This document shows positions 36,659-57,246 of a stretch of 64,000 nt of DNA, piece after piece. The stretch spans positions 86,746 through 150,745 of the forward strand of contig CAVZUV010000008.1 of NCBI GenBank assembly GCA_963778575.1. Reading direction: 5' to 3'. The translations under genes and the position numbers were made by a program. The stretch's first letter is position 1. Each line of letters begins with the position of its first letter. Source of the stretch: an uncultured delta proteobacterium. Lineage in GTDB: Bacteria > Desulfobacterota > Desulfobacteria > Desulfobacterales > UBA11574. The notes under the pieces are model-generated. The model did no database searches. It worked only from the letters and a program-made list of their open reading frames with translations, and was not told the DNA's origin.

Positions 36659-36671
36659 GAGGTTACCATTC

Positions 36672-37058
36672 ATGTTTGAAGACAAAAAAAAGCCTATAAA
36701 GATCCTTTTTGTGGATGATGAAAAAGGGTTTGTGGACGTCATATCCAAAAGAATGTCCAAACGAAACATTGAAGTTACCAAAGCCTACAGCGGCAAAGAT
36801 GCGTTGCAGGCTTTGAGGAAGACGGATTTTGATGCGGTGGTTCTGGATCTGAAGATGGAAGATATGGACGGCATCGAAATTTTAAAAATCTTTAAAAAAA
36901 TCGTTCCGGATCTTCCCGTAATTATGCTCACAGGGCACGGGTCCGAAGAAGCGGCCAGAGACGGTTTACGGCTCGGGGCCTCGGATTACCTGACAAAACC
37001 ATGTGAATTTGAGGAACTCATTGTAAAAATAAAAGATGTTGTTTCATCCGGGAGGTGA
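36672..37058 (+). CDS. single-domain response regulator
   Basis: ILFVDDEKG ... AVVLDLKMEDMDG ... LTKP. Confidence 0.9.
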   Translation: MFEDKKKPIKILFVDDEKGFVDVISKRMSKRNIEVTKAYSGKDALQALRKTDFDAVVLDLKMEDMDGIEILKIFKKIVPDLPVIMLTGHGSEEAARDGLRLGASDYLTKPCEFEELIVKIKDVVSSGR

Positions 37059-37507
37059 CGAAATTGGAAGCCTTGAAAGTTCTTTTTGTAGATGACGAAA
37101 TCGATTTTTTGGAAACACTGATGAAGCGCATGAAAAAGCGCGGCGTGGATGTCGCAGGGGTCGGAAGCGGCGAAGAGGCACTCGATTATTTGAACATGCA
37201 TCGGGCAGATGTGGTTGTGCTGGATGTCAGAATGCGGGGTATCGGGGGAATAAATGCGTTAAAGGAGATAAAGAAAATAGATCCTTTGATGGAAGTCATT
37301 ATGTTAACCGGTCACGCCAGCATAGAAGCGGCCATAGAAGGCATGGAATCGGGTGCTTTTGATTATCTTATGAAACCGGCGGATTTTGATGAGCTTTTTT
37401 ACAAGATTCAGGACGCTTTTAAAAAAAGAACCATACAGAAACAAAAAATTGAAAAACTTGGAAATCTCAAACTGACGGATCAAAAGAAAGGAGCGATATC
37501 AACGTGA
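37055..37507 (+). CDS. single-domain response regulator
   Basis: GTG start overlapping the upstream stop by 4 nt. VLFVDDEID ... VVVLDVRMRGIGG ... LMKP. Confidence 0.85.
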   Translation: MTKLEALKVLFVDDEIDFLETLMKRMKKRGVDVAGVGSGEEALDYLNMHRADVVVLDVRMRGIGGINALKEIKKIDPLMEVIMLTGHASIEAAIEGMESGAFDYLMKPADFDELFYKIQDAFKKRTIQKQKIEKLGNLKLTDQKKGAIST

Positions 37508-38803
37508 ACTTTTTAAAACAATGGGGACAATTTATGATGATGGGTGCAAGGGCCCATGCGCGGTGGGAGATTAGTGTATCCAATACCATTTTTAGCGATA
37601 AAAAACGGCTGTTAATTTTAGGCTTGCTGACCATCCCCATTATCTTGGGAGGCATAGCGTTTGCAGACCAGATCGGCGGGGCGTTGCCAAAATTATTGGG
37701 CGGCAAAAAGGCTTACAGTCCTGCGTTTTACAGTACAGGCATATTTGTCGTCTCCATTCTTATCGGACTGGGCGCCGGGCTGATTACCGGATGCATCGGC
37801 GCCGGCGGCGGATTTATCATTGCACCGGCTTTGATGAGCGCCGGCGTTAAAGGCATTTTAGCGGTGGGAACCGACCTATTCCATATTTTTGCAAAGGCCA
37901 TCATGGGAAGCGTCATCCACCGGAAACTTGGGGAATATTTCCGTGGCACTGGCACTGGTCTTTTTAATCGGCGCCATTATAGGCGCTACCGTCGGCGGCG
38001 TCATTAACCGCCTATTATATGCCATCAATCCCGTGCTCAGTGACGCATTTATCACGACCGTTTACTCGGTTATGCTTGGATTCTTGGGAATTTATGCCAT
38101 GACTGATTTTCTCATGGCTAAAAGAGCAGAGCGCAAGGACTTTCATGGCAGGGAGACCCGTGGCAAAAAGGTTGAAGGCGCGGAAATGGGGGGCCTTCCC
38201 AAAAAGCTCCAGGCTGTCAATCTTCCTCCAAAAGTCAAATTCGATTATGATCTTACCCCCGAGGGGAGAAGTATTTCATGGGTCTTTTTGGTCTTAAGCG
38301 GCGGGATGGTCGGATTTGTGGCGGCCATCATGGGCGTTGGCGGCGGCTTTTTGACATTTCCGATTTTTGTTTATGTTCTGGGCGTTTCCTCCATGACTAC
38401 GGTAGGAACCGACATTTTCCAGATTGTGTTCACCGCCGGTTATGCCGCCATCAGCCAGTATGCGATTTACGGATTTATTTTCTACACGCTTGCCATGGGG
38501 ATGCTTTTGGGGTCTTTGGTGGGGATCCAGGTCGGGGCAATTGTGACTAAGGTCGTTCGCGGCATCACGATCCGCGGGTTCTACGCCATGGCGGTCCTCG
38601 CCGGTTTTGTTAACCGGGTCTTTGCACTGCCGGCCAAGCTGGGTGCCATGGATATCATTAAGATATCAAAAGGAACCGGAGCTCTACTGGAAAAAATTGG
38701 AATATGGGCATTTTTCGTCGTAATATTGGGATTCGCGATATGGGTAATCGGCACGTTTTTAATGAATATCCGAGTACTTAAAGGTGGGGAGGCTGAATCA
38801 TGA
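37504..38803 (+). pseudogene. TauE/SafE-like permease paralog interrupted by a 1-nt frameshift in a G4 run (37930..37933)
   Basis: ORFs 37504..38007 and 37889..38803 together align along the whole of 14805..16085. Frame A reads ..GSVIHRKLG and frame B continues NISVALALVFLIG, where the paralog has HKKLGNVNYRLAIAFVVG. Removing one G restores a single ORF. Confidence 0.7.
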
Positions 38804-39486
38804 TAGAAAAAAAGAAAGAATTTTTTGGCGGCCTGGCATTGTTAATCGGATTTGCAGTCATATTGATCATCATCTTTTCCCCGATCTTTGAGGGACAAAA
38901 CGGTCTGAAATATTTAGACAACTTATACAATTCCATCTCAAAGGGGTCGGCCTATTACATTCCAAAGGTAAAAAAGGAAATAAATACGTTTGCCGGTACA
39001 TCTGTCAATGTAACCATTGCAATGGCGGACGATGGCCAGGCCCAGCAAACAGCCGCTTTGTTAATGAAAGGCGACGCCCTGGTCAATGTGTCCGGAACCC
39101 AATTGAAGATCGAGGGAGATCTGGCAAAAATCTTATCAAACTGTCTTGCCGATGCCGACAGCATGTACATCAATGACGGGCAAACTGTTGCTGCCAAATA
39201 CGGCTATAACGAAAGGCAGGTCCTGTATAACTGGTGGCAGGCGCTCAAGGCCCTGAATAAGAATTTAACCAAGCAAAAACAGTTCAAAGCAGCCAGTGCC
39301 GTTGATACGGTTGCAACTAAAGCAGTGGAGACTTCTTACAACTACTACCGAATCGAGCCCCAGAAAATATCCGATCGCTTCTTTATTGTCTTCTTTTCTT
39401 TGGTATTTTATGTCATCTATACGCTCTGGTATGGTTTTGCAATTATGTTCATGTTTGAGGGATGGGGTCTGAAGCTGGAACATTAA
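38800..39486 (+). CDS. conserved hypothetical membrane protein, partner of the TauE-like gene (paralog of 16089..16796)
   Basis: 228 aa with the same TM topology and shared blocks (KYGYNERQVLYNWWQALK vs RYGYAGKEVVLQWWLAFK). 4-nt overlap with the upstream gene. Confidence 0.7.
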   Translation: MIEKKKEFFGGLALLIGFAVILIIIFSPIFEGQNGLKYLDNLYNSISKGSAYYIPKVKKEINTFAGTSVNVTIAMADDGQAQQTAALLMKGDALVNVSGTQLKIEGDLAKILSNCLADADSMYINDGQTVAAKYGYNERQVLYNWWQALKALNKNLTKQKQFKAASAVDTVATKAVETSYNYYRIEPQKISDRFFIVFFSLVFYVIYTLWYGFAIMFMFEGWGLKLEH

Positions 39487-39679: not shown

Positions 39680-42280
39680 ATGGGCGTACTGTTAGACCAA
39701 TTTAAAAAGCTTTTTATTAAAAAGCCGGAACCTGCAGCAGGTGATGTCGAACAACTCCGCATTGAGTTCAAGGAGCGGTATCACAGTTTCAAGCTCCTGC
39801 TGAATGCCAATAACAGAGCGCTTGAGATTATGGCCGATATGGAGCGGGCGCTTGAGGGCGGACAACCCTTTGGCATGGCCTTTGTCCGGGCAAGTTGCAC
39901 GGCGATTTCCGTCAATATCTTTAATATGGTAAAAAATATGGAAAAGCTCGCCCAGGACAAATACGGGGAACTTGATGTCCGGTTTAACGATATTCAGCAA
40001 AAGATTGATAAGTTGCTTTCACAGAAGAAATCGATGAAAGATGAAAAGCTCGTAATACCCATGGATGCTGTGAATAAGGAGATGAGCGATTTTGTAGGGA
40101 ACAAGATGGCCAATCTCGGGGAAATAAAAAATAAACTTCAGATCAGGATTCCCACGGGATTTGTCATTACTTCGGCAGCCTATGAAAGGTTTATCAAAGA
40201 AAATGACTTGCAGGCGGAAATTGACCGGCGCATTCAATCCGCTGATGTGGATAATATAGAAAGGCTTTATACCCTGAGTTCAGAAATTCAGCAGCTTATT
40301 ATCCAATCCAGAGTGCCGGATGATCTGGCCGATGCCGTTAGGCAGGCCTATCAGAAACTCGAATCAGACACAAAAGGTAAAATAGCTTTGGCTTTAAGGA
40401 GCAGTGCTTTAGGAGAAGATACGCGGGACAGCTCATTTGCCGGCCAGTATCGGAGTGAACTGAACGTCGGTTTTGACAGCATATTCCAGGCATACAAGGA
40501 GATTCTGGCGAGCAAGTATTCATTTCAGGCCGTTACCTACCGGTTGAACAGGGGATTTAAGGATGAAGATATTTCCATGTGCGTGGGATGCATGTGCATG
40601 GTGGATGCCGTAGCAGGTGGTGTCATCTATACTCGCAACCCCGTTGACATGGCCGATGATTCGATTTTTATCAATTCCGCATGGGGGTTGCCCAAGTCGG
40701 TTGTCGACGGCAGTGATGCCTGCGATCTTTTTGTTGTTTCAAAAAAACCCCCCAGAGAGATTATCCGTAAAACTATAAACACCAAGGAGATAAAATTTGT
40801 CTGCCTGCCGGAAGAGGGGGTTTGCCGTATGGAGTTGACCGGAGATAAAAAGGATCTGGCCTCCATTGATGATAAGAAGGCATTGGATCTGTCGGAACTT
40901 GCGGCTAAAATTGAAGAATACTATGCAACACCCCAGGACATTGAATGGGCCGTTGCCGAGGATGGCTCTGATTATATCCTGCAATGCCGGCCTTTAAAGC
41001 AAACGGAGACGTTGGAGACGAATCTTTCTGAACCCGCATTTAAGACAGCACAAGATGCCATCATTGTCAAGGGAGGAATCACCGCAAGTCCGGGTACAGC
41101 CAGCGGGAAAGTCTATCTGGTGGACAAGGGGATAGATATCCTGCGGTTTCCTCAAGGGGCGATATTGGTTACCCGGCAGCCACTTCCAATATGGGCCTCA
41201 CTGTTAAATCGATCGGCTGCTGTTGTAACGGAGCAGGGCGGCTTTGCCGGGCATCTCGCCAGCGTGGCACGAGAGTTCGGTGTCCCTGCGCTCTTTGGAG
41301 TGGCCGGTGCTGTAAATCGATTGAATCATGGCGATCTGGTCACCGTTGATGCCGACACCCTGACCATTTATAAAGGAGAAATCGAGTCGTTACCGGTAAA
41401 ATCCGGGCCAAAGATAAACCTTATGCAAGGCAGCCCGGTTTATGAAACCTTGAAACAGGTGAGCAGCCTTATCATTCCTTTAAACTTGCTCGACCCGGAT
41501 TCTCCTTATTTTAGTGCGGCCAACTGCAAAACTTTCCATGATATGACCCGGTTTGTCCATGAAAAAGCAGTATATGAGATGTTCAATTTTGGTAAGGCGC
41601 ATAAATTTTCAGAAAAATCGAGCAAACAACTTTTTTATAATGTCCCCATGCAGTGGTGGATTTTGAATTTGGACGACGGATTCAAGGAAGATGCGGTCGG
41701 CAGGTATGTGAAGCTGGAAAATATCGCCTCGATCCCGATGCTGTCTTTCTGGAAAGGATTCAGCGCCGTTCCCTGGGAAGGCCCGCCGGCAATTGACGGC
41801 AAGGGTTTTGCGTCAGTTATATTTCAATCGACGGTAAATCGGAATTTAATCCCCGGTCTTCGTTCAGCCTATGCCGCCCGTAATTATTTTATGATCTCCA
41901 AAAATTATTGCAGCTTAAGTTCGAGGTTGGGGTATCATTTTTCCATCCTGGAGGCGCTGGTCAGTGAACGCGTAACGGAAAATTACATCAGTTTCCAATT
42001 TAAAGGGGGTGCGGCAGACCATCAGCGACGACTCGGAAGGGTTCATTTTATTGCAGGAACACTTAAAAAAGAGGGCTTCAGAGTAGATGTAAGAGAAGAC
42101 AATCTCATTGCGCGGGTGGAAGGCCATGACATGGCGTACATGAAAAAACGTCTCGAAATTCTGGGTTATCTGACGCTTCATACCCGGCAGCTCGATATGA
42201 TCATGAGTAACAGCGCCGCACTGAACCATTATCAGCAAAAAATCGAAAAAGACATCCGGAACATCCTCGATTCAGAATAA
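39680..42280 (+). CDS. PEP-utilising-enzyme family phosphotransferase (PPDK_N ATP-grasp plus mobile His domain) with non-canonical N- and C-terminal regions
   Basis: 866 aa. VGNKMANLGE and LALRSSALGEDT..SFAGQY (ATP-grasp). GTASGKVYLV...VVTEQGGFAGHLASVAREFGVPALFG (swivel His domain). The last ~300 aa do not look like a PEP/pyruvate TIM barrel. Confidence 0.7.
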   Translation: MGVLLDQFKKLFIKKPEPAAGDVEQLRIEFKERYHSFKLLLNANNRALEIMADMERALEGGQPFGMAFVRASCTAISVNIFNMVKNMEKLAQDKYGELDVRFNDIQQKIDKLLSQKKSMKDEKLVIPMDAVNKEMSDFVGNKMANLGEIKNKLQIRIPTGFVITSAAYERFIKENDLQAEIDRRIQSADVDNIERLYTLSSEIQQLIIQSRVPDDLADAVRQAYQKLESDTKGKIALALRSSALGEDTRDSSFAGQYRSELNVGFDSIFQAYKEILASKYSFQAVTYRLNRGFKDEDISMCVGCMCMVDAVAGGVIYTRNPVDMADDSIFINSAWGLPKSVVDGSDACDLFVVSKKPPREIIRKTINTKEIKFVCLPEEGVCRMELTGDKKDLASIDDKKALDLSELAAKIEEYYATPQDIEWAVAEDGSDYILQCRPLKQTETLETNLSEPAFKTAQDAIIVKGGITASPGTASGKVYLVDKGIDILRFPQGAILVTRQPLPIWASLLNRSAAVVTEQGGFAGHLASVAREFGVPALFGVAGAVNRLNHGDLVTVDADTLTIYKGEIESLPVKSGPKINLMQGSPVYETLKQVSSLIIPLNLLDPDSPYFSAANCKTFHDMTRFVHEKAVYEMFNFGKAHKFSEKSSKQLFYNVPMQWWILNLDDGFKEDAVGRYVKLENIASIPMLSFWKGFSAVPWEGPPAIDGKGFASVIFQSTVNRNLIPGLRSAYAARNYFMISKNYCSLSSRLGYHFSILEALVSERVTENYISFQFKGGAADHQRRLGRVHFIAGTLKKEGFRVDVREDNLIARVEGHDMAYMKKRLEILGYLTLHTRQLDMIMSNSAALNHYQQKIEKDIRNILDSE

Positions 42281-44279: not shown

Positions 44280-46283
44280 CTAATTCAACACCAAATCGAT
44301 GACCTCTTCCAATTCATTGATTTCGATGATCTGAATATCTTTTTTAATATCCTCGGAGATATCCTTGATGTCCGAATTGTTTCTGGCCGGGAAAACCACG
44401 GATTTGACACCGGCCCGGTGCGCGGCCAGGACCTTTTCCTTGACGCCGCCCACAGGCAGAATCCTTCCGCTTAACGTCAACTCGCCGGTCAGCGCGACGT
44501 TCCTTTTGCAGGAACGGTTCGTTATCAGGCTGATGAGCGCTACGGCGATGGTCACGCCGGCGGACGGACCGTCTTTAGGGATCGCGCCGGCAGGCACATG
44601 GATGTGAATGTCATGGGTTTCGAATAGGCTGTCCGGGATATTGAAAGCATCAGCGTGGCTTCGAATATAACTCATCGCCGCGTGAGCCGATTCCTTCATC
44701 ACGTCTCCCAATGACCCGGTGAGAATAAGATTGCCTTTTCCTTTCATTTTGGCGGCTTCAATAAAGATGATCTGGCCTCCGGCTTCCGTCCATGCCAGTC
44801 CGGTGGCCACGCCCACCCTTTCTCTGGCTTCTGCAATCTCGAAATAAAACTTTTGAGGGCCTAAAAAATCTTCCACCATTTCCGGCGTTAGATGGGTCGC
44901 TCCGTCTTTATACGCCCCGCGCAATGTTTCACGGGCGATTTTACGGCAAATGGATGCAATCTGACGTTTGAGATTTCTCAAACCCGCTTCCCGGGTGTAC
45001 TCCCGGATGATCTTATGGATGGTCTCCGGCGTGAAAACCGGCGGGTTTTCGGTGAGCCCCGCTTCTTCGATTTCTCTGGGGATTAAATATCGGGTTGCGA
45101 TTTTTGCTTTTTCTTCTTCCGTATACCCCAACAGGGTAATCACCTCCAGGCGGTCCAGCAGGGGGCCCGGAATAAGATCCAGGGCATTTGCAGTGGCGAT
45201 GAACATCACACGAGACAGGTCAAAGGGAACATCCAGGTAATGATCCGTAAAATGCGTATTCTGTTCGGGATCAAGAACCTCCAGCAAGGCCGCGGCCGGA
45301 TCCCCTTTAAAATCACCGCCGATTTTGTCGATTTCATCGAGCATAATCACGGGATTCTTTGTTTCCGCACGGCGTATTTCCTGAATAATTCTTCCCGGCA
45401 ACGCACCGACATAGCTTTTACGGTGCCCTCTTATTTCAGCCTCATCCTTCATGCCGGCCAGAGATATGCGAACAAATTTTCGTTCCAAACTCCTGGCAAT
45501 CGACATGCCCAGCGATGTTTTTCCGGTGCCGGGAGGGCCGGCAAAACAGAGTACCGGTCCTTTGGGCTCTAAACGAACTTTTTTCTTATACAATGCTTTT
45601 TGGATGGTTGAACGGATTTCATCGAGCCTTAACGGTTTGGTCAGATAATGGTATGATCCTTTTTTCATCGCCTCAATGGCCGTTGATACGGTGGCATACC
45701 CTGTGATGATAATCACTTCGGTACTTGGGTTGACCGCTTTGGCTTTTTCCAGAACCGTCATGCCGTCGACTTTTCCCATTTTGAGATCCGTGACGATAAC
45801 ATCAAAGGCACTTTTTTCCAGAAAATCCAACGCCTCTACACCATCGGAAGCGGTATTGACGTGATAGCCGTCTTTTTTAAAAACATGTTCCAGATTCTGG
45901 CGGGTAATTTTTTCATCATCCACCACCAGTATCTTGTGTTGGCCCGACATCTTGAGAATCCTGACGGAAAGATGCTCCAAAATGCGGTCTTTTATGTTGG
46001 CCAGTCCAAAATGATCTTCATCGAGGATGGATTCGGCCCGTTTAATATCGAGGTTGTCATTGGTCATTTTGTTCCAGGGCAGACTCAACAGATAATCGAT
46101 ATAGTTGATGCCGATGGTATATTCAGTGCTTGAAGGGGAGGTTTTGGTCAGCCGCTCGAGTTCTTTGTGGACGACTTTTTCTACCGGTTCGGGCATTTTG
46201 GCCCTTTGTACGTCTTCTTTAAGTTCATTGAGTTCCGACGGCAGTTCCTTCATTTGTCCTTTTTCCTTCTTAAATATTCGCAT
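44280..46283 (-). CDS. lon: Lon-type ATP-dependent protease lacking the N-terminal substrate domain and carrying an inserted receiver (REC) domain
   Basis: 667 aa. Lon linker LDEDHFGLANIKDRILEHLSV, then REC (ILVVDDEKITRQNLE...VIVTDLKMGKVDG...LTKP), then Walker A GPPGTGKTS, and the protease motif PKDGPSAGVTIAVAL. Confidence 0.85.
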   Translation of the reverse strand: MRIFKKEKGQMKELPSELNELKEDVQRAKMPEPVEKVVHKELERLTKTSPSSTEYTIGINYIDYLLSLPWNKMTNDNLDIKRAESILDEDHFGLANIKDRILEHLSVRILKMSGQHKILVVDDEKITRQNLEHVFKKDGYHVNTASDGVEALDFLEKSAFDVIVTDLKMGKVDGMTVLEKAKAVNPSTEVIIITGYATVSTAIEAMKKGSYHYLTKPLRLDEIRSTIQKALYKKKVRLEPKGPVLCFAGPPGTGKTSLGMSIARSLERKFVRISLAGMKDEAEIRGHRKSYVGALPGRIIQEIRRAETKNPVIMLDEIDKIGGDFKGDPAAALLEVLDPEQNTHFTDHYLDVPFDLSRVMFIATANALDLIPGPLLDRLEVITLLGYTEEEKAKIATRYLIPREIEEAGLTENPPVFTPETIHKIIREYTREAGLRNLKRQIASICRKIARETLRGAYKDGATHLTPEMVEDFLGPQKFYFEIAEARERVGVATGLAWTEAGGQIIFIEAAKMKGKGNLILTGSLGDVMKESAHAAMSYIRSHADAFNIPDSLFETHDIHIHVPAGAIPKDGPSAGVTIAVALISLITNRSCKRNVALTGELTLSGRILPVGGVKEKVLAAHRAGVKSVVFPARNNSDIKDISEDIKKDIQIIEINELEEVIDLVLN

Positions 46284-46553
46284 GATAGGATTCCTCTATT
46301 TTCCGTATACAATCAGATTCAACTGCCCCGCGCAATAATTTTTTGCTGTGGGTCTGCCCGCCAATAATAGGCGTTACAATACGCAACGAGACCTTCTTTT
46401 TTTGCAATATTGAATAACTTTCTAATATTAAAAGAGATATTTTCATCATCCAAAGAACCATTGCAGATTGCAACGTTTTTATAGGAGGTGATTATAATGT
46501 TAATATCGATATAAATATAATGTTATCAATTAGATATATATTTTCGGCGGCAT

Positions 46554-46568
46554 TGGCACAAGAGTTGC
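46554..46568 (+). promoter_or_regulatory. sigma-54 (-24/-12) promoter
   Basis: TGGCAC-AAGAG-TTGC is a perfect consensus. The predicted start near 46580 excludes the track start at 46576. Confidence 0.7.
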
Positions 46569-46620
46569 TCTACCAATGAACAACAGCGAAAAAAAACATT
46601 GCACAATGGAGGATTCACCC

Positions 46621-46797
46621 ATGTTTAAATTCAAAGAGACTTTCGACAGATTGATGGCGGCAATTACCTTTGCCCAGGCCAATGAGCATGAGATGGCGCT
46701 TGATATCATGCATGACCGTCCGGAAAGCGAATCCCGGAAAAAGGCCGAAGACCGTGTTCGGCGCAGTGAAGAAACCCGTCCGGAGATGCGTATTTAA
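46621..46797 (+). CDS. small protein (58 aa) with TFA(E/Q)A(G/N)E motif
   Basis: GGAGGA RBS 8 nt before ATG 46621. MFKFKETFDRLMAAITFAQANEHEMALDIMHDRPESE... Confidence 0.55.
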   Translation: MFKFKETFDRLMAAITFAQANEHEMALDIMHDRPESESRKKAEDRVRRSEETRPEMRI

Positions 46798-46834
46798 CCG
46801 GACGCCAAGGATCAGCGGGAAAAAAAGGATAACG

Positions 46835-47335
46835 ATGAAAAGCGTATTGTTAACCATAGACGGCATGACCCCCGACCAAAAGGCATTCGAGTATGCGGTG
46901 TCTCTTTGCAAGCGGATACAGGCGGAGCTGAGCATATTCCAGATCATCAGACCCCGGTACTATCGCAAGTATATGAAAAAGATTCGAAAAAATGCCTTGC
47001 TTGCCAAAAAGCTCGTTGAAAGCGCCATAATAGCGGCAACCTTTGCGGAAGCCGGTGAGCACGAGACGGCTTTGGATATAATGACTGAGGCCTCGAAGCA
47101 GATTGAACATCTCATTCAGGAATCGGAAAAAGCAGGTGTTCATTGTCGCTTTTCGATTACGTCGGGGAATCCGGAAAAAGAGATCGTCGAATATGTCAAC
47201 GACCATCGGGACGTTATTTTGACCATCTACGATGTTTTCGGTGGCAGCGGAACCGTCGAAAGCTTTGAAAAGAAAAATACCCTTGCGAAGATTAAAAGAA
47301 ATTTATCGGTTCCCCTGGTTACGGTTCACGGTTAG
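46835..47335 (+). CDS. Usp-like protein with an internal TFAEAGE motif insert
   Basis: ATG 46835 after an AAGGA RBS. MKSVLLTIDGMTPDQKAFEYAVSL (Usp-like N-terminus), then AATFAEAGEHETALDIM, then Usp-like C-terminal strands. Confidence 0.65.
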   Translation: MKSVLLTIDGMTPDQKAFEYAVSLCKRIQAELSIFQIIRPRYYRKYMKKIRKNALLAKKLVESAIIAATFAEAGEHETALDIMTEASKQIEHLIQESEKAGVHCRFSITSGNPEKEIVEYVNDHRDVILTIYDVFGGSGTVESFEKKNTLAKIKRNLSVPLVTVHG

Positions 47336-47383
47336 ACATCAAACAAAATGAAAAAACATATATGATTTAAGGAGGAGGTAAAA

Positions 47384-47941
47384 ATGGCTGGGATTTTTGG
47401 AAGAATCAAACGAAAATTGAGCAAAACCGGCAATAAAATGGAGAAATATCATGAAGCGATTACCTTTGCCGAAGCCGGCGAATCCGAATATGCCGTAACG
47501 TCAATGGCTGAAAAAAAAGAGGCTCAGGCGCCCACAAAACTGCTGGTTATGGGCAGAGAAAGCGATTTTTCAAAAGAGATTATCGATTATGCCCTGGAAA
47601 TGGCGAAGCGGATGTCTTATGACATTCTGGCCTTAAATACGGCGCCGCTGTCCTGCGAAACATTTAAGCTATTTTCATCTTCTCGCAACCAGGTCTGTGA
47701 AGAGTTTTCGGCCATGTCCAAAAAAAATGCCGGGTTGTTTCAGGAAGCGGCTGCCGAAAAAGGAATTGCTTTTCATCACATTGTAATGTTCAGCGAGCCT
47801 GAAGAAGCGCTGGAATCCATCACCAGAGAGCATAAAGAAATCGCTTTTGTAGTGTCGGAAAGCGTGGAAGACCGAGGGGAAAGCAGGGTCGAAGAGGGTG
47901 AGCGTCTACGCCGAAATCTTTATGTTTATTCCATGGTCTAA
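47384..47941 (+). CDS. Usp-like protein with an N-terminal TFAEAGE motif
   Basis: AAGGAGGAGG RBS. HEAITFAEAGESEYAVTSM, then KLLVMGRESDFSKEIIDYALEMAKRMSYDILALN (Usp-like fold without an obvious ATP motif). Confidence 0.65.
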   Translation: MAGIFGRIKRKLSKTGNKMEKYHEAITFAEAGESEYAVTSMAEKKEAQAPTKLLVMGRESDFSKEIIDYALEMAKRMSYDILALNTAPLSCETFKLFSSSRNQVCEEFSAMSKKNAGLFQEAAAEKGIAFHHIVMFSEPEEALESITREHKEIAFVVSESVEDRGESRVEEGERLRRNLYVYSMV

Positions 47942-48053
47942 CCGGGTATCGAGTGACGGTGTTTTTCGAATAACGAGCAACGAACAACCCATAACTTCAA
48001 TTGAGCATTTTTTGCGCCATCGAGATTAAATAATATTGACTGCATAAAATCTT

Positions 48054-48090
48054 AAAATCCGGCCTTTTTTTGAAAGGCCGGATTTTCTTT
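48054..48090. terminator. bidirectional terminator between convergent genes
   Basis: AAAATCCGGCC-11 nt loop-GGCCGGATTTT. Confidence 0.65.
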
Positions 48091-48145: not shown

Positions 48146-48685
48146 TTATCCGATGATCATAATGACTTCGCCGGTGGCGACCTCCGAATCTTTTTGAACC
48201 CGAATCATCTGAACAAAACCATCCATGCTACTGGTAATATTATTTTCCATTTTCATGGCTTCCATGGTCGCTACGGTTTGGCCCTTGACCACCGGGTCTC
48301 CAACTTTCACCTTGATATCCATGATGCGTCCGGGAATCGGTGCCACAATTTCACCCGCGGTCTGCACTTTTTTGGGAGACCGCACCTCGATTCGGCCCAT
48401 TGTCGGTGACGATACCCTGGGAGGTATTGGCGCCGGCTTCGGGGACGGTGCCGGTTTCGCGGATGTCGCCGGTTTCGGAGTTGCGGTAGTCACCGGTACA
48501 GCAGCATATGGCGACGCAGGAGCCGAAGGCAAAGATCCGGTTGCGACGTCCTCGTAGTTTTCAATCAGAATGTCAAAGGGTTGGCCATCGACGGTTACCT
48601 GGGCAATGCCTTCTTTGATGTCATTGATTTCAATCTCAAATTTTCGGTCGTTGACTGCAATTTTGTATTTCATAAAATGCCTCAT
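48146..48685 (-). CDS. biotin carboxyl carrier subunit of Na+-translocating decarboxylase
   Basis: Ala/Pro-rich linker and the C-terminal biotinyl motif VATMEAMKMEN. ATGA overlap with the upstream gene. Confidence 0.85.
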   Translation of the reverse strand: MRHFMKYKIAVNDRKFEIEINDIKEGIAQVTVDGQPFDILIENYEDVATGSLPSAPASPYAAVPVTTATPKPATSAKPAPSPKPAPIPPRVSSPTMGRIEVRSPKKVQTAGEIVAPIPGRIMDIKVKVGDPVVKGQTVATMEAMKMENNITSSMDGFVQMIRVQKDSEVATGEVIMIIG

Positions 48686-49614
48686 CGATTCTGCAAGCGA
48701 TTACTGCGGTTCGTAAGTATGGATCGAGCATTCATGATCCGTTCACGGCCTTGCCGGACCCAGGGCGAAATCTCCGGCTTAATAAAATGGGGGGTTGTCG
48801 TGGGTCGATGTGCTGAAAAATGCAAATGCAAGGCCGCACAGACAGCTGCGGCCAGTTCCGGTTCAACGGACTCGGCCGGTTGAATATCGGGTGCCGGGGC
48901 TTTTGGCTGCGATAGAATCTCTTTTGCTTTTTTCTTGTCTAACATCTGAAAGACCCTTCCCGAAATGATCAGGCCGATCATTAGGATGGACAGGACCAAA
49001 AAAATACCGAAGAACCGGATAAAAAGGGTACCCAAGGCATATCCCCAAAAAGAGTCCTTGGGTCCTCCCTCAAGCGTAATCCGGCCGTTGACCGCGCCGT
49101 CACTGTCAAATGGTCCGCCGTCCTTTACGGAAATCGTCAGTTTTTGGACCAGGTCGGGAAGGCTTAGATTCTGCGCGTCAGCGTTTACCCAGGGTTCTTT
49201 TGACGTTGGGTTGAATACCCAGTACTCGGTCGAGCTGGTGAAAAAATTCGACGTTATGGCTACCTTGGCCTCTCCGCCCGGAGAAACTTTGTCGATCTTG
49301 ATCACAAAAAGTTCGGACTTGAAATCCTTATTGTCGACGCCGGGACCGGCAGCCTCTTTAAAATCCATACCTTCAACATCGATGAGGTCGCCGCCTGAAA
49401 CCTGGAACTGAATAGAAACGCTGGTGCTTTTTGCACGAGGAATGAGCTTGGCCGTGATGATATCTCCCGCACGGGTGAATTCGGGTTTGGGCTTTTCCAG
49501 ATCTTCACCAAAAGCCGCCCAAACCTGGGTCCGTGGCGCCAAGACAATCAACATTAATGCCAAAATGAACCACGTCCAAATTCTTTTGAAAAATTCATCA
49601 GGTAAACTCGTCAT
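48682..49614 (-). CDS. OadG/MmdD-like small-subunit homolog fused to a ~190-aa N-terminal extracytoplasmic domain
   Basis: C-terminal part: TM helix FIRFFGIFLVLSILMIGLIISG plus PELAAAVCAALHLH, as in decarboxylase gamma/delta subunits. N-terminal part: a signal anchor and a beta-rich domain with DGGPFDSDGAVNGRITLEGGP. Confidence 0.6.
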   Translation of the reverse strand: MTSLPDEFFKRIWTWFILALMLIVLAPRTQVWAAFGEDLEKPKPEFTRAGDIITAKLIPRAKSTSVSIQFQVSGGDLIDVEGMDFKEAAGPGVDNKDFKSELFVIKIDKVSPGGEAKVAITSNFFTSSTEYWVFNPTSKEPWVNADAQNLSLPDLVQKLTISVKDGGPFDSDGAVNGRITLEGGPKDSFWGYALGTLFIRFFGIFLVLSILMIGLIISGRVFQMLDKKKAKEILSQPKAPAPDIQPAESVEPELAAAVCAALHLHFSAHRPTTTPHFIKPEISPWVRQGRERIMNARSILTNRSNRLQNR

Positions 49615-49623
49615 AATGCTCTC

Positions 49624-50772
49624 CTACTTGAACATGGCGATGAACATTCCTGCCGCGGAGGCAGAACCGATAACGCCGGCAAGGTTGGGGCCCATGGCAT
49701 GCATGATGAGCCAGTTATCGGGGTCGGCTTTCTGGCCTTCCACTTGAGAAACCCGGGCGGCCATGGGTACTGCGGAAACCCCTGCGGAGCCGATAAGAGG
49801 GTTCATCTTTTCTTTTAAAAACAGATTCATGATGTGGACGGTCAGGATACCGCCGAAGGTACATATAATAAAATCCAAAAGCCCAAAGCCGAAAATCAGC
49901 ATCGGTTTCCAGCTCAAAAAGACATTGGCCTGCATGGTCGCTCCTACCGAAAGCCCCAACAGTATCGTGACAATGTTCATCATGGCGTTTTGAGCTGTTT
50001 CGCTCAGGCGCTTCACCACACCGCATTCGCGCATAAAATTTCCGAACATGAACATGCCCATCAACGGCGCTACGGCAGGAATCAGAAGAATAATGAAAAT
50101 CGTCGCAATGAGCGGAAAGAGCAGCTTTTCTTTTGCGGAAACGGGCCTGAGCTGCCGCATTTTGATCCGGCGTTGTTCGGGGGTGGTCATCAGACGCATG
50201 ATGGGCGGCTGTATGAGGGGAACCATGGCCATGTAAGAATAAGCGGCCAACGCATTGGGGCCTAACAGCTGCGGTGCGAGCATGGCGGTCAGGTAAATCG
50301 TGGTGGGGCCGTCCGCGCCGCCGATGATTCCCACCGACGCAGCTTCTTTTAATGTAAAACCGAAAAAGAGGGTCCCGCAATACGTGATGAACACCCCGAG
50401 CTGTGCCCCGGCACCCACGATCAGCGTTTTCGGATTGGCGATCAGTGGTCCGAAATCGGTCATTGCTCCCAGCCCCAAGAAGATCAGGCATGGGATGATT
50501 TCCCACTGCACACCGTATTTATAAAAGGCTCTGATGAGTTCGGGGTCGCCGTGTTCGGTAAAGCCCATGAGCGGTGCCAGGGGAAAGTTCACCAAAAATA
50601 TTCCAAAGCCGATGGGAACGAGCAGCAGCGGTTCATATTCTTTGGCGACGGCGAGGTAAAGGAAAAAAAAGGAAATGAGGATCATGATCACCTGGCCCAC
50701 CTCCAGGTTCGGTATGCCTGTCTGCGTTAGAAGGATGCTCTTAATCAGTTCAAATACTTGATCCCAGCTCAT
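49624..50772 (-). CDS. Na+-translocating decarboxylase beta subunit (OadB/MmdB/GcdB family)
   Basis: 382 aa and polytopic. GAMTDFGPLIANP and IGGADGPT motifs. Confidence 0.9.
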   Translation of the reverse strand: MSWDQVFELIKSILLTQTGIPNLEVGQVIMILISFFFLYLAVAKEYEPLLLVPIGFGIFLVNFPLAPLMGFTEHGDPELIRAFYKYGVQWEIIPCLIFLGLGAMTDFGPLIANPKTLIVGAGAQLGVFITYCGTLFFGFTLKEAASVGIIGGADGPTTIYLTAMLAPQLLGPNALAAYSYMAMVPLIQPPIMRLMTTPEQRRIKMRQLRPVSAKEKLLFPLIATIFIILLIPAVAPLMGMFMFGNFMRECGVVKRLSETAQNAMMNIVTILLGLSVGATMQANVFLSWKPMLIFGFGLLDFIICTFGGILTVHIMNLFLKEKMNPLIGSAGVSAVPMAARVSQVEGQKADPDNWLIMHAMGPNLAGVIGSASAAGMFIAMFK

Positions 50773-50795
50773 ATAACGGTCTCCTGTTTAAAGGT

Positions 50796-52346
50796 TTAAA
50801 GGGGAATGTTTCCGTGTTTCTTTGGAGGGTTGGTATCTCGTTTATTGCTGAGCATCCTTAACGCCTGGATGATTTTCCACCGGGTATCCGCCGGATCGAT
50901 GACCTCATCGATATAACCGTGTTCCGCAGCCCTGTATGGATTCGAAAATTTATCCCGATAGTCGTCGATCAGTCGCTGTCTTTCCGTTTCAGGATCTTCG
51001 GCTTTTTTAATCTGACTGCGGCAAATGATATTCACGGCGCCGTCAGCGCCCATGACCGCAATCTCTGCATTGGGATACGCCAAGATGATATCACCCCTAA
51101 GATGTTTCGAGCTCATGACAATATAGGCGCCGCCGTAAGCCTTGCGGGTAATGACGGTCACGCGCGGCACGGTGGATTCGGCAAATGCATAGATCAACTT
51201 GGCGCCGTGCTTGATAATTCCGCCGTGTTCCTGGTGGGTACCGGGCATGAATCCCGGGACATCCTCAAAAATAACCAGCGGGATATTAAAACAGTCGCAA
51301 AAACGGACAAACCGGGCGCCTTTATTGGAGGCATTGATGTCGAGGACTCCGGCCATTGCAGCGGGTTGGTTGGCGACAACTCCCACCGGCATACCGTCAA
51401 ATCTGCCGAAACCGACAACGATGCTGGGTGCCCAGTGTTCATGCACTTCAAAAAAATAATTGTCATCCAGGCAGGCCCTAATGACATTGCGCATGTCATA
51501 GGGCTTGTTGGAGTCCGAAGGGACGATTTCGCGAATGCTCTCCTCGCGACGCATGGGGTCGTCAACCGGCGATCGCCGGGGTGGATCTTCCATGTTGTTC
51601 TGGGGCAGAAAAGACATGAGTTCCCGAATTTTTTCGATGCACGTTTCATCGTTGGGACAGGGAAAGTGCGCCACACCGCTTTTGGCACTGTGTGCCATTG
51701 CGCCGCCGAGTTCTTCCATGGTGACATCTTCCCGGGTAACGGCCTTGACGACTTCGGGGCCGGTTATAAACATATAACTGGTATTTTCAACCATAAAAAC
51801 CCAGTCGGTCAACGCCGGGGAATAGACGGCCCCTCCGGCAGAAGGGCCCATAATGGCGCTAATCTGGGGGATGACCCCGGATGCCATAACATTCAAAAGA
51901 AATATATCACCGTATCCGGCCAGGCTCATAACCCCTTCCTGGATTCTCGCACCGCCGGAGTCATTGAGCCCGATGACCGGCGCGCCGACGCGCATGGCAT
52001 GCTGGAGAACTTTGCAGATTTTTTCAGCATGGGCCAGAGAAAGAGAACCGCCGTGTGCAGTGAAATCTTGTGCAAATACAAATATTTGTCTTCCATGCAT
52101 CAGCCCATGCCCCGTAACGACGCCGTCGCCCGGGATCTTTTTATTCTCCATTCCGAAATCGGTACAGCGGTGCACTTTAAATCGATCGAACTCGACAAAC
52201 GTTCCTTCATCCAAAAGCTTGTCGATTCGCTCACGGGCGGTGAGTTTTCCTGAATCGTGCTGTTTTTGGATTCGGTCGGGACCACCGCCTTCCATGGCTT
52301 TCCGGTTCTTTCCATCGAGTTTTTCGAGTATTTCTTTTGAGTCCAT
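50796..52346 (-). CDS. acyl-CoA carboxyltransferase (decarboxylase alpha subunit, methylmalonyl-CoA decarboxylase/PccB-like)
   Basis: 516 aa with GGGPDRIQKQHDSGKLTARERIDKLLDEGTFVEFD and DSGGARIQEG. The substrate cannot be assigned from sequence alone. Confidence 0.85.
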   Translation of the reverse strand: MDSKEILEKLDGKNRKAMEGGGPDRIQKQHDSGKLTARERIDKLLDEGTFVEFDRFKVHRCTDFGMENKKIPGDGVVTGHGLMHGRQIFVFAQDFTAHGGSLSLAHAEKICKVLQHAMRVGAPVIGLNDSGGARIQEGVMSLAGYGDIFLLNVMASGVIPQISAIMGPSAGGAVYSPALTDWVFMVENTSYMFITGPEVVKAVTREDVTMEELGGAMAHSAKSGVAHFPCPNDETCIEKIRELMSFLPQNNMEDPPRRSPVDDPMRREESIREIVPSDSNKPYDMRNVIRACLDDNYFFEVHEHWAPSIVVGFGRFDGMPVGVVANQPAAMAGVLDINASNKGARFVRFCDCFNIPLVIFEDVPGFMPGTHQEHGGIIKHGAKLIYAFAESTVPRVTVITRKAYGGAYIVMSSKHLRGDIILAYPNAEIAVMGADGAVNIICRSQIKKAEDPETERQRLIDDYRDKFSNPYRAAEHGYIDEVIDPADTRWKIIQALRMLSNKRDTNPPKKHGNIPL

Positions 52347-52915
52347 GCAGTCTCCTTTGTTCGATCCACAGGGTGAAGCGGGAATGCATACCCGGTGAAC
52401 TTTTATTTAAAACAGTCATTATGTTGGCGTACGGTCAACTGAGTCCATGCGGCAACAGTTATTTTTAAACGGTCATTGGTGAATGGATTGCTCAACTGCC
52501 CTTAGCAAAAATTATGAAAGGATTCAATCGAAAAAACTGAAATAATTCTCAAATCAACATCGTTATGGGCAAAACAAAGCCTTTATGCCGGATCCGTCAT
52601 CACGGGATCGCATTAAAAATTGTCGCGACTTCCTAAATTGTTCGTCATCGCTGAAATTTAGGGTTGCGCCGGTTGAGATAGATAGTTGTTTCAATATGAA
52701 ACTTTAGGGGAAAACCGCGACAATTTGTGCCTGAAGAAAACGTGTTATAACCGTATCGAGCCCCTTTAAACATCCGTGTCGTTGAAACAGAAGATTCTGA
52801 TTTTATGTAGATTTCGGATTTTGTGTTTTTTTTGGCGGAAACCATATTCCATATTGCAAAAAATTTAAATGTATGCATTATATAACTCTTTTTAAAATCA
52901 AAAAAGGAGGTTGGA

Positions 52916-52996
52916 GTGGATACGCATTTCCTTTTTGGCCTTGTGCTTATCGGTTTTGCTTTCTGGCTGTGTTTTAAGTTCAGAAAAAAGAAATGA
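52916..52996 (+). CDS. candidate 26-aa hydrophobic leader peptide upstream of the DASS permease
   Basis: AGGAGG RBS 5 nt before GTG. (M)DTHFLFGLVLIGFAFWLCFKFRKKK. An overlapping alternative frame from TTG 52911 would give a lipobox-like LLSGC but has no RBS spacing. Confidence 0.3.
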   Translation: MDTHFLFGLVLIGFAFWLCFKFRKKK

Positions 52997-53057: not shown

Positions 53058-54872
53058 ATGACACCTGAGATGATCTTGACAATGATTGTACTTGGTTTTG
53101 CCGTCGTTCTGTTTATTTTTGAATGGGTAAGGGTCGATGTCGTGGGAATTATCATGATGGCGTTGCTCCCGCTTATCGGCCTGATATCGCCGAAAGAAGC
53201 ATTTGTCGGCTTGAGCAGTAACGCCGTTGTCTCCATCATGGCGGTCATCATTATCGGCGCCGGTCTTGACAAGACAGGGGTCATGAACAAAGTGGCCGGC
53301 CCCATCATCAAGATGGCCGGCAACAGCGAAAAAAAAGTAATTATGCTGGTATCCGGTACTGTTGGCATCATATCGAGCATGATGCAGAATATCGGTGCCG
53401 CAGCCCTGTTTCTTCCGGCGACCCAGCGAATTTCCAAAAGAATGGGGGTACCGATATCTCGACTCCTGATGCCCATGGGATTCTGTGCCATCATCGGCGG
53501 AACCATCACGCTGGTAGGAGCCAGTCCCACCATTCTCTTGAATGATCTCATGGTTCTCGGCGGGAAAAAGCTGCAACCCTTCGGCCTTTTCACCCAAACC
53601 CCCATCGGCATCTGCTTGCTTTCCAGTGCCATCATCTATTTTATTCTTTTCGGAAAATTTATCCTGCCGGCGGCGGAAGGCGAAGCGGAAAAGGGGGTTA
53701 CGGCGCTGTTGATGGAAGCCTACCAGGGACTCGAAAATACGTTTGAAATCCATATCCCGGATACCTTTGTCGGCCCCAAGACGTTGGAGGAACTGGCCAT
53801 CAGGCCGAAATTTCTGGTGACCGTGGTGGCCGTCAGTTTTACGGCGGAAAACGAAAAAACTTTTGTGCCGAAAAGCAGTGATGTTATTTCTCCGGGAGAT
53901 AACATTGCCGTTATCGGCAAGGAAAAAATGGTTAAAATGCTTGCCGACGAATACGGATGGAAGATCAAGGGCGGGCTGGATGTTTTTGGAGAGAGCCTGG
54001 CGGTGATTAATGCCGGGATGGCGGAAACAGTGGTGTCTCCCCGGTCGGAACTGATCGGCAAAACCATGAGTCAGGTTAATTTTAAGGAAATGTACGGTGT
54101 AAACCCGGTGGCGCTGTTTACCGGCAATAAGATTATTTACAGCAACTTAACCCATGTTCGGCTGCAAATGGGCGATACGCTGTTGCTCCAGGCGCCCTGG
54201 GAGAAATTTCACATTCTAAGAAATCAGCCGCAGCCCCGGGCACTGACCTTTGCCACAGCCCTTGAAGGTGAAATCATGCGTCCGGAAAAGGCCAAACTGG
54301 CGATAACTTGGCTAGCCGTGGCCCTGGCGCAAATTATTTTTTTTAAAATTCAGCTTTCCGTGGCGCTCATGTCCGGAGCGCTGGGCATGATCATCACCGG
54401 CGTGCTCTCGGTGGATGAAGCCTATCGCGCCGTGGACTGGATGACCGTGTTTCTCCTGGCCGGCCTGATCCCCTTAGGTATTGCTTTTGAAAAAACCGGC
54501 ACGGCTGCGTTTATTGCAAAATTCGTTCTCGGGATGCTGGGTAATCCCTCACCCATCGTCTTGCTGGGGGCGGTGGGCATCATGACCTCTTTTTTCACCC
54601 TGGTGATTTCCAATGTCGGCGCAACAGTGCTTCTGGTTCCGCTGTGCATGAACATGGCGGTCATGGCCGGCGGAGATCCCCGAATGGCGGCGCTGGTCGT
54701 GGGATTGTCGGCATCCAATACATTCGTTCTTCCGACGCATCAGGTCAACGCCCTTGTTATGAGACCCGGGGGCTATCGTACCGTGGACTATGCCAAGGCG
54801 GGGGCAATTATGACGGTCATCTTTTTAACCGTGGAATTGACCATTCTCTATTTCTTTTATGGCATTCAGTGA
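53058..54872 (+). CDS. DASS/SLC13-family anion permease with two central TrkA-C domains
   Basis: 604 aa. N- and C-terminal transporter halves flank two TrkA_C-like segments (GDNIAVIGKEKMVKML and GDTLLLQAPWEKF). Confidence 0.8.
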   Translation: MTPEMILTMIVLGFAVVLFIFEWVRVDVVGIIMMALLPLIGLISPKEAFVGLSSNAVVSIMAVIIIGAGLDKTGVMNKVAGPIIKMAGNSEKKVIMLVSGTVGIISSMMQNIGAAALFLPATQRISKRMGVPISRLLMPMGFCAIIGGTITLVGASPTILLNDLMVLGGKKLQPFGLFTQTPIGICLLSSAIIYFILFGKFILPAAEGEAEKGVTALLMEAYQGLENTFEIHIPDTFVGPKTLEELAIRPKFLVTVVAVSFTAENEKTFVPKSSDVISPGDNIAVIGKEKMVKMLADEYGWKIKGGLDVFGESLAVINAGMAETVVSPRSELIGKTMSQVNFKEMYGVNPVALFTGNKIIYSNLTHVRLQMGDTLLLQAPWEKFHILRNQPQPRALTFATALEGEIMRPEKAKLAITWLAVALAQIIFFKIQLSVALMSGALGMIITGVLSVDEAYRAVDWMTVFLLAGLIPLGIAFEKTGTAAFIAKFVLGMLGNPSPIVLLGAVGIMTSFFTLVISNVGATVLLVPLCMNMAVMAGGDPRMAALVVGLSASNTFVLPTHQVNALVMRPGGYRTVDYAKAGAIMTVIFLTVELTILYFFYGIQ

Positions 54873-57236: not shown

Positions 57237-57246
57237 AAGGATAAGT

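Follow-up and report, generated by a model that had tools for sequence, protein, structure and literature searches.

Tetratricopeptide repeats (TPRs) are modules of protein-protein interaction, and among proteins of the universal stress protein (Usp) fold TeaD is a case in which the gene lies beside the transporter genes that it accompanies. Together with RssB-ClpXP, CpdR-ClpXP and the NtrC-type regulons of sigma-54, these are the described systems that come closest to the locus considered here. The very large sigma-54 regulons of the organisms concerned are mostly unassigned. The locus lies in a 64,000-nucleotide stretch of DNA (the window) from an uncultured delta proteobacterium of the order Desulfobacterales (assembly GCA_963778575.1, contig CAVZUV010000008.1, positions 86,746 to 150,745) and consists of three consecutive open reading frames, ORF1, ORF2 and ORF3, whose products share a short peptide of the type TFAEAGE. 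This peptide turns out to be a unit of a widespread family of repeats, a fact that an earlier sequence-only reading of the same stretch had missed. A sigma-54 operon encoding Usp-like proteins is ordinary in kind; the new part is the shared peptide, which belongs to an abundant, modular and undescribed family of predicted alpha-hairpins tied to a conserved regulatory neighbourhood.

ORF1, ORF2 and ORF3 form one sigma-54-type operon with a conserved promoter architecture. The sequence-only reading had placed a promoter of the form TGGCAC-AAGAG-TTGC at 46554, and the window contains there an exact match to TGGCAC-N5-TTGC, with GG and GC elements at exact -24/-12 spacing that are conserved in orthologues; good ribosome-binding sites precede all three genes. 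The same reading had described the motif in three consecutive genes, with an internal copy in one Usp-like protein and an N-terminal copy in the other, and both points hold. In a six-frame translation of the whole window the pattern [AIVLT]TFA[EQD]A[GN]E has exactly three matches, one each in ORF1, ORF2 (internal) and ORF3 (N-terminal), against a chance expectation below 0.001 by our own rough estimate. In a BLASTP comparison of ORF2 with ORF3 the motif is the sole significant common segment (12 of 19 residues identical, E 6e-4), and no further copy was found in the window, including its receiver proteins at 36.6-37.5 kb, its PPDK_N protein (39680-42280) and the REC-Lon protease encoded next to the operon.

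The operon and its motif are conserved together. ORF3 was found in 23 loci of related Desulfobacterales metagenome-assembled genomes, at identities from 96% down to 51%, and ORF1 and ORF2 are also present in all 21 of those loci that include upstream sequence. Gene order, the -24/-12 elements and the motif in all three proteins are retained even in the most distant loci, including L022 (57%) and L023 (51% ORF3 identity), so that the conservation in orthologues on which the earlier proposal depended extends over this whole range. ORF1 evolves under purifying selection, with a ratio of nonsynonymous to synonymous polymorphism (pN/pS) among 21 orthologues of 0.29 for the whole gene and of 0.13 for the half that contains the motif. 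The GGAGG located 8 nt before the 58-residue reading frame is conserved in the upstream alignment and therefore marks the real ORF1 start, rather than the upstream ATG at 46576. In four sediment and salt-marsh metatranscriptomes, contigs mostly 95-99% identical to the window, and some 90-95% identical, cover 46594-47940, that is, ORF1 to ORF3. The word depth of these RNA contigs reaches 125 over the operon, compared with 2-5 over lon and 0 over 46322-46582; contig depth is a crude measure of transcription, and carry-over of DNA is possible. The contigs start at 46594-46633 and none covers 46322-46582, which is compatible with a transcription start just downstream of the -12 element. The operon is thus transcribed in situ in closely related strains, and it is unlikely that ORF1 goes untranslated. 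RNA contigs of two runs, X13 and X14, join 47940/47942 to 48147 and omit 204-206 nt; this junction looks like a strain variant missing the intergenic spacer in which the terminator hairpin lies.

Beyond these orthologues, a profile built from the ORF1 orthologues together with the ORF2 and ORF3 motif segments was searched against 1.84 billion representative proteins and identified 425 clusters (at 50% identity) with E<=1e-3. Among the 149 listed hits that were kept, 69 proteins contain one copy, 63 two, 15 three and 2 four, and the spacing between successive copies in these proteins has its mode at 34 residues (23 cases), ranging upward by means of linkers. Homologue clusters number 566 for ORF3 and 165 for ORF1 (called genes), and all named homologues of either protein are labelled "hypothetical" except for a spurious "altronate dehydratase" label. 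A homologue search with the repeat profile gave 288 candidates, those listed being 53-74 residues long and mostly 55-62, and scanning metagenomes for AVTFAEAGE yielded 120 stretches, some 12 of them chance matches in frames unrelated to the family. By their source names, single-copy members come from Thermodesulfovibrionales, Ca. Sulfobium (Nitrospirota) and Desulfobacterales; judged from these few names, the family spans Desulfobacterota and Nitrospirota. A chance or low-complexity resemblance in which ORF1 is no real gene could be argued only from how short ORF1 is and how rich in Ala and Glu the motif is. This possibility receives practically no weight and is already refuted by the number of matches in 64 kb, conservation down to 51% identity, the 425 clusters, and the selection on the motif half of ORF1 with its conserved ribosome-binding site and RNA coverage.

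The consensus of the module, derived from 355 distinct units including 24 placed by a loose extraction pattern in 12 chance reading frames, is [FL]-[ED]-x-h-M-x-A-[VI]-T-F-A-E-A-G-E-[HFYW]-[ED]-T-A-x-E-[IM]-[LM]. Positions A-2, F+1, A+2, E+3 and A+10 are conserved in at least 96% of units and the T-F-A-E-A-G-E core above 80-97% (E+3 97%, E+6 82%), although the conservation of the core is inflated because part of the unit set was chosen by the pattern AVTFAEAGE. One option raised by the sequence-only reading was a short ligand-binding helix. In a form that also allows for metals, the Usp-like domains would sense a cation or small molecule held by the acidic E-A-G-E-H-E cluster. The acidic residues are invariant, the copies in the window often have His at +7, and Usp domains are often ligand sensors whose solved relatives bind AMP, cAMP or c-di-AMP. 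Across the family, however, His +7, the only varying candidate for a liganding side chain, occurs in only 36% of copies and is otherwise replaced by F, Y, W or P; most members have no Usp domain at all, Cys/His pairs are absent, and no similarity to known metal-binding motifs was seen in Pfam or PDB. A binding role of this kind is therefore very improbable.

In AlphaFold2 (AF2) models the module is predicted to be an alpha-hairpin of about 30 residues, composed of a helix, a G/N-E turn and a second helix, so that the 17-residue amphipathic helix described earlier was the wrong unit. The clearest view is given by P0253, a relative with three modules in one chain, whose hairpins are modelled as H3-21/H25-36, H45-59/H63-70 and H75-93/H97-109 with a predicted local distance difference test score (pLDDT) of 83-86; in each unit a first helix of about 19 residues, with TFAEA at its end, is joined by a turn of three residues to a second helix of about 12. 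The hairpin of ORF3 is modelled as H18-30/H33-43 at a low pLDDT of around 30. The earlier view that the motif is not a named domain agrees with searches of Pfam, NCBIfam, PDB sequences and full-text literature, none of which identified it. All Pfam and NCBIfam models stay below threshold on the module family, where the commonest weak matches are TPR families; neither TFAEAGE nor FAEAGE led to any relevant paper in full-text searches; and the motif, the upstream palindrome of this operon and these genes are mentioned neither in the results of keyword searches nor in two papers on sigma-54 regulons (PMC4641369 and PMC12316311). Searching PDB with the repeat profile revealed no sequence relative of the module. 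The best match in that search, a ParD-type antitoxin (E 0.3), covers only 15 residues with the wrong spacing and was rejected. A Foldseek search with the three-module model returned only Usp matches and GRAS matches of high root-mean-square deviation, and is uninformative on the hairpins.

The closest resemblance is to TPRs. The modal spacing of copies equals the 34-residue TPR period, and the AF2 models have the TPR-like order of helix A, turn and helix B (in ORF3 at low pLDDT). Pfam lists no TPR model for ORF1, ORF2 or ORF3 at E<=1; among 90 family members the weak hits include TPR_4 in 14 (E<0.1), TPR_6 in 10 and TPR_14 in 8. An hhalign comparison with the consensus TPR protein CTPR3 aligned FAEAGE..A with YYKQGDYDEA at a probability of 1.8%, which is not significant. 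Since no significant TPR, Pfam, NCBIfam or PDB match exists, the module is treated as a separate, TPR-like hairpin family.

The architectures in which the module occurs, compiled from the representative hits and the metagenome scan, are diverse. It stands alone in proteins of about 50-60 residues with either an acidic tail or a basic tail ending in RPxLR[AVIM] or APGIKR (the ORF1 type), and small proteins consisting of the module, a basic tail and RPxLR[AVIM] are widespread. Two or three modules form proteins of about 100-140 residues with a conserved "VGL..V...YG" or "IPG[IV][KR][IV]W" tail. One to four copies precede an ORF3-type Usp core and one or two precede an ORF2-type core, while in other Usp-like families one or two are inserted after beta-2, the same place as in ORF2. 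Further copies are located at the C-terminus of receiver domains, ahead of a two-transmembrane (2-TM) "FSFVHG" domain, and within a PPDK_N-like protein. Relatives of ORF3 place two to four modules ahead of the same core: P0253, P0255 and P0264 combine three modules with an ORF3-type core in one chain, P0252 and P0373 combine two, and the ORF3 motif aligns in register with the last repeat of such multi-copy relatives. The PPDK_N-like (PEP/pyruvate-binding) protein, which has one inserted copy (..AAVTFAEAGEHETAREIL..), was observed in the metagenome locus L111; the PPDK_N protein of the window itself has none.

The two larger proteins of the operon share more than the motif. The sequence-only reading had called the three proteins otherwise dissimilar, a description that fails for ORF2 and ORF3 because a Usp-type fold is common to both. 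ORF2 passes the Pfam Usp model (PF00582; 31.3 bits, E 3.5e-7, cut-off 24 bits). ORF3 fails by sequence (14.3 bits against the same cut-off), but its AF2 model contains a confident alpha/beta core at residues 50-160 (pLDDT 80-95), and a Foldseek search of this model against PDB gave 37 top matches that are all Usp proteins (E 1.8e-5, TM-score up to 0.65 normalised on the target). The top structural match is TeaD of the TeaABC transporter (PDB 3hgm), and Foldseek likewise assigns the Usp fold to the core of P0253. By reading of the sequences, the G-2x-G-9x-G(S/T) ATP motif of the UspFG/MJ0577 class is absent from both ORF2 (..VFGGSGTVESFEKKNTLAKIK..) and ORF3 (..VEDRGESRVEEGERLRR..), whereas the tandem Usp proteins of three distant loci (L149, L151 and L152) do possess it. 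ORF1 has no Pfam family at E<=1 and no NCBIfam match.

The likeliest explanation is that the hairpins are modules of protein-protein assembly. The small, basic ORF1 and the Usp-fold ORF2 and ORF3 would associate through their hairpins, mirroring the single-chain relatives in which three tandem hairpins precede an ORF3-type domain. Together they would form a complex that modulates the CitMHS/TrkA_C transporter whose gene is the next after ORF3 in most relatives, while a histidine kinase and NtrC-type activator pair at 55.8-58.6 kb probably drives expression through two TTGCA-N3-TGCAA palindromes, and the divergently encoded REC-Lon may share the kinase of the activator and act on the motif proteins. 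An assembly role is favoured because of the tandem TPR-like period, the occurrence of three hairpins fused in one chain, the clustering of motif genes and the grafting of modules onto other domains. Modularity, with carriers as different as receiver C-termini, 2-TM proteins, two Usp-like types and a PPDK_N-like protein, argues in the same direction. As comparative evidence, such fusions, tandem arrays and clusters favour docking or oligomerisation, which the sequence-only reading had suggested, as the probable function of the peptide; binding of hairpin to hairpin, the transporter as target, an activator acting at the palindromes and a part for Lon are all proposed components of the scheme.

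Several observations weigh against it. The ORF3 hairpin has a pLDDT of only about 30 and the predicted template modelling score of P0253 is only 0.55, so that packing of hairpin on hairpin is not demonstrated by the models. Near-invariant charged surface residues (E+3 and E+6) are unusual for a purely structural repeat and would be explained equally well or better by recognition through a single external partner shared by all carriers. Roughly half of the family members have one copy and come from loci that showed no second motif gene, many of these contigs being short. A decarboxylase operon lies between ORF3 and the CitMHS gene in the window, and this CitMHS gene has neither the palindromes nor a sigma-54 site, and the histidine kinase and activator pair is a candidate whose assignment rests on synteny. 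As a whole, the assembly explanation seems to us about evenly balanced between right and wrong.

The features of the operon, its promoter and its neighbours are collected in Table 1.

Table 1. Features of the ORF1-ORF2-ORF3 operon and its surroundings, in positions of the window.
Feature	Position	Strand	Description
REC-Lon protease	44280-46283	-	Divergent from operon; Pfam Lon_C, Response_reg, AAA, Lon_lid; TIGR00763
Upstream palindrome 1	46372-46388		CGTTACAATACGCAACG; TTRCA-N3-YGCAA type; putative activator binding site
Upstream palindrome 2	46459-46475		CATTGCAGATTGCAACG; 87 bp from palindrome 1
A/T-rich block	46518-46537		TAATGTTATCAATTAGATAT; conserved, between palindromes and promoter; IHF-like
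Sigma-54 type -24/-12 promoter	46554-46569	+	TGGCAC-AAGAG-TTGCT; TGGCACAAGAGTTGC at 46554-46568 is the exact TGGCAC-N5-TTGC match
ORF1 ribosome-binding site	46608-46612	+	GGAGG, 8 nt before ORF1 ATG
ORF1	46621-46797	+	58 aa; hairpin module at residues ~7-30 (46639-46710), then basic tail with RPEMRI end
ORF2	46835-47335	+	166 aa; Usp fold; hairpin module at residues ~59-83 (47009-47083), inserted after beta-2
ORF3	47384-47941	+	185 aa; N-terminal hairpin module at residues ~18-41 (47435-47506)
ORF3 core	residues ~50-160	+	Divergent Usp fold, C-terminal to hairpin module
Likely terminator	48054-48086		G+C-rich hairpin between convergent ORF3 and biotin-carrier gene; RNA contigs end at 47940-47942
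Biotin-dependent Na+-decarboxylase operon	48146-52346	-	Carboxyltransferase, beta, gamma-like and biotin carrier subunits
Membrane micro-ORF	52916-52996	+	26 aa, single transmembrane segment, VDTHFLFGLVLIGFAFWLCFKFRKKK; strong ribosome-binding site
CitMHS/TrkA_C transporter	53058-54872	+	
Histidine kinase	55809-57236	+	Pfam; candidate regulator of the 46554 promoter
NtrC-type sigma-54 activator	57142-58617	+	Probable GTG start at 57247; candidate regulator of the 46554 promoter

In relatives the usual gene order is REC-Lon on the opposite strand, ORF1-ORF2-ORF3, the 26-residue micro-ORF, CitMHS/TrkA_C, an optional cytidylate-kinase-like gene, the histidine kinase and the NtrC-type activator. 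The micro-ORF and the CitMHS gene lie directly 3' of ORF3 in most relatives, and orthologues of the histidine kinase and activator follow CitMHS in related loci at 67-88% identity. The window shares the decarboxylase operon, inserted between ORF3 and CitMHS, with L001, L002, L005, L016, L018 and L021; the other relatives lack it at this position. The micro-ORF, with its product VDTHFLFGLVLIGFAFWLCFKFRKKK, lies about 60 nt upstream of the CitMHS gene and is conserved in almost every related locus, L022 and L023 among them. The CitMHS upstream region of the window contains neither TTGCA-type palindromes nor a sigma-54 site, whereas six relatives (L006, L010, L013, L014, L019 and L020) have a TGGCACGAATGATGC promoter upstream of CitMHS, preceded in L006, L010, L013, L019 and L020 by a TTGCA-type palindrome pair with 86-bp spacing and in L014 by one perfect copy; transporter regulation has therefore been rewired between the window and these relatives. 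A perfect but different palindrome, GTTTCAATATGAAAC, is located upstream of CitMHS in the window, at 52688-52702.

More distant family members occur in comparable surroundings. The P0253 gene sits alone between a histidine kinase and activator pair and a CitMHS gene, the activator immediately upstream being 53% and the CitMHS protein 55% identical to those of the window, and it is preceded by TGGCAC-N5-ATGC and by a palindrome, GTTGCATCGCGCAAC, that matches both window palindromes in type. In L149 (Ca. Sulfobium), L151 and L152 an operon encodes a small motif protein, a motif-bearing ORF2-type Usp protein, a 2-TM protein (missing from L149), a TauE-family transporter and a tandem Usp protein. 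Among 47 independent metagenome loci with a length of 4 kb or more, a sigma-54 activator is encoded in 31, a histidine kinase in 26, TauE in 25 and REC-Lon in 10, and two or three motif reading frames are adjacent on the same strand in 21. The window itself contains, at 34949-39486 on the forward strand, a block comprising a dCache histidine kinase, two stand-alone receivers (37-39% identical to the receiver of REC-Lon), a split TauE gene and a 228-residue membrane protein homologous to a 245-residue protein of L149; the block resembles the motif-bearing TauE operons seen elsewhere, yet it has no motif copy. Its TauE-family gene (37528-38800, forward strand) is split over two frames near 37925-37935 when compared with the 429-residue TauE of L149, a frameshift that represents a pseudogene, an assembly error or recoding.

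The recurrence of transporter and two-component genes beside motif genes in most loci would also suit a reading in which the hairpin docks its carriers onto a common partner that itself lacks the motif, such as the TrkA_C domain or loops of the CitMHS and TauE transporters, the histidine kinase or the activator. The position of ORF3-type cores directly before CitMHS (in most relatives, though not in the window) and of ORF2-type cores before TauE operons would agree with such docking, as would the near-invariance of FAEAGE over very different carriers and the existence of receiver proteins with one C-terminal copy. It leaves the multi-copy arrays unexplained, however, and offers no single obvious docking surface because the CitMHS and TauE families are unrelated; it appears distinctly unlikely.

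The strongest rival to the assembly explanation is that the hairpin is recognised by REC-Lon or by another common partner. The sequence-only reading had taken the divergent neighbour for a REC-Lon protein, as Pfam and TIGR00763 confirm (757 bits against a cut-off of 608; Lon_C 289 bits, Response_reg 98 bits), and had not recognised that REC-Lon recurs beside motif genes in other phyla. The receiver lies directly before the AAA+ module and its Walker A motif, and the globular Lon N-domain is absent. If the hairpin is an address label for this protease, the motif proteins would be its substrates or adaptors, recognised when the receiver is phosphorylated or dephosphorylated by the kinase that also switches on the operon; REC-Lon would recognise the hairpin itself because the usual N-terminal substrate-binding domain is missing. 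Consistent with this, most close relatives (most of L001-L021) encode REC-Lon divergently from the operon, and it adjoins motif genes in L149, L151 and the 10 metagenome loci, by our estimate far more often than one or two lon genes per genome would produce by chance. Its receiver is 50% identical to that of the 57.2-kb activator, helix alpha-1 included (the next best receiver in the window reaches 39%), and the charged motif residues are conserved. On the other hand, no Lon is within reach in 37 of the 47 motif loci, REC-Lon is absent from L022 and L024-L027, and arrays of two to four copies at a fixed 34-residue period are typical of packing repeats rather than degrons. The tandem arrays, like the large number of loci that have no Lon, count against recognition as the sole role of the hairpin, and recognition by REC-Lon is judged unlikely, though not negligible. 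A more elaborate proposal, in which the hairpin would be the address label of a branched circuit where one kinase governs synthesis through a sigma-54 activator and removal through a receiver-gated Lon, is distinctly doubtful at present.

For the assembly explanation, the regulatory input is suggested by the region upstream of the promoter. The two palindromes, at about -113 and -200 relative to the predicted transcription start, are the only good matches to this palindrome type within the window, and both are kept, together with the A/T-rich block and the -24/-12 elements, in an alignment of 22 upstream regions. The A/T-rich block differs by one mismatch from WATCAANNNNTTR in the window and matches it exactly in L010 and L016; by our own reading of the consensus, it may be a site for integration host factor (IHF). 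TTGCA-type palindromes also lie upstream of the motif genes in L024, L149, L151 and L152. In the last three they take the form ATTGCA-N3-TGCAAC ahead of sigma-54-like sites with one or two mismatches, and the pairs are spaced by 85 bp in L149, 89 bp in L152 and 147 bp in L151, compared with 87 bp in the window. The two conserved palindromes and the candidate NtrC-type activator in the conserved neighbourhood indicate a different, dedicated activator, as had been anticipated from the sequence. The window as a whole contains 15 sigma-54-like sites (TGGCAC-N5-TTGC with at most one mismatch), compared with 3.95 expected from shuffles, and TGGCATATCTTTTGC occurs in it twice, at 1332 and 19271.

Definition of the module would annotate hundreds of small proteins that are now "hypothetical" or wrongly labelled "altronate dehydratase", and would account for the additional segments that many Usp-like and receiver proteins contain in sulfate reducers and related anaerobes. 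The association of sigma-54 promoters and a palindrome pair with a histidine kinase and NtrC-type activator, CitMHS or TauE transporters and a receiver-fused Lon points to a conserved, experimentally tractable regulatory unit, and it offers the uncharacterised REC-Lon architecture a specific candidate function together with possible clients. Were the branched circuit to prove true, the hairpin would mark small proteins, Usp-like regulators, receivers and membrane anchors as one assembly recognised by Lon, and the cell would gain a dedicated make-and-destroy switch for transporter regulators, undescribed in anaerobic sulfur-cycle bacteria.

Compared with known systems, the module resembles TPRs and related alpha-hairpin repeats (TPR_4, TPR_6, TPR_14, PPR) in its helix-turn-helix unit and 34-residue tandem spacing, and its turn signature G-[ED]-aromatic-[ED]-x-A aligns with "GDYDEA" at TPR positions 15-20. 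It differs in the predicted length of helix A (about 19 residues, compared with roughly 14 in TPRs), in a conservation that is far higher and includes charged residues, in the lack of the conserved Pro at the repeat end (TPR consensus W4 L7 G8 Y11 A20 F24 A27 P32), and in occurring mostly in one or two copies, single ones being grafted onto or inserted into other domains. With the Usp family, the locus shares an ORF2 above the Pfam threshold and the Usp fold of the ORF3 and P0253 cores, whereas ORF2 and ORF3 lack the ATP motif, ORF3 falls under the Pfam cut-off, and Pfam, NCBIfam and literature searches show no described Usp protein with the hairpin. Like teaD, the ORF2- and ORF3-type genes adjoin a transporter gene, and by analogy with TeaD their products are likely to regulate the adjacent transporter. 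REC-Lon resembles RssB-ClpXP and CpdR-ClpXP in coupling a receiver domain to an AAA+ protease, but here the receiver is fused into Lon itself in place of the N-domain, and the protease is encoded beside the regulon on which it may act, the link between Lon and the motif being a genomic one. In its regulatory layout, the operon corresponds to NtrC-type sigma-54 regulons, with a candidate histidine kinase and NtrC-type pair, a pair of putative upstream activator sites, an IHF-like site and a -24/-12 promoter.

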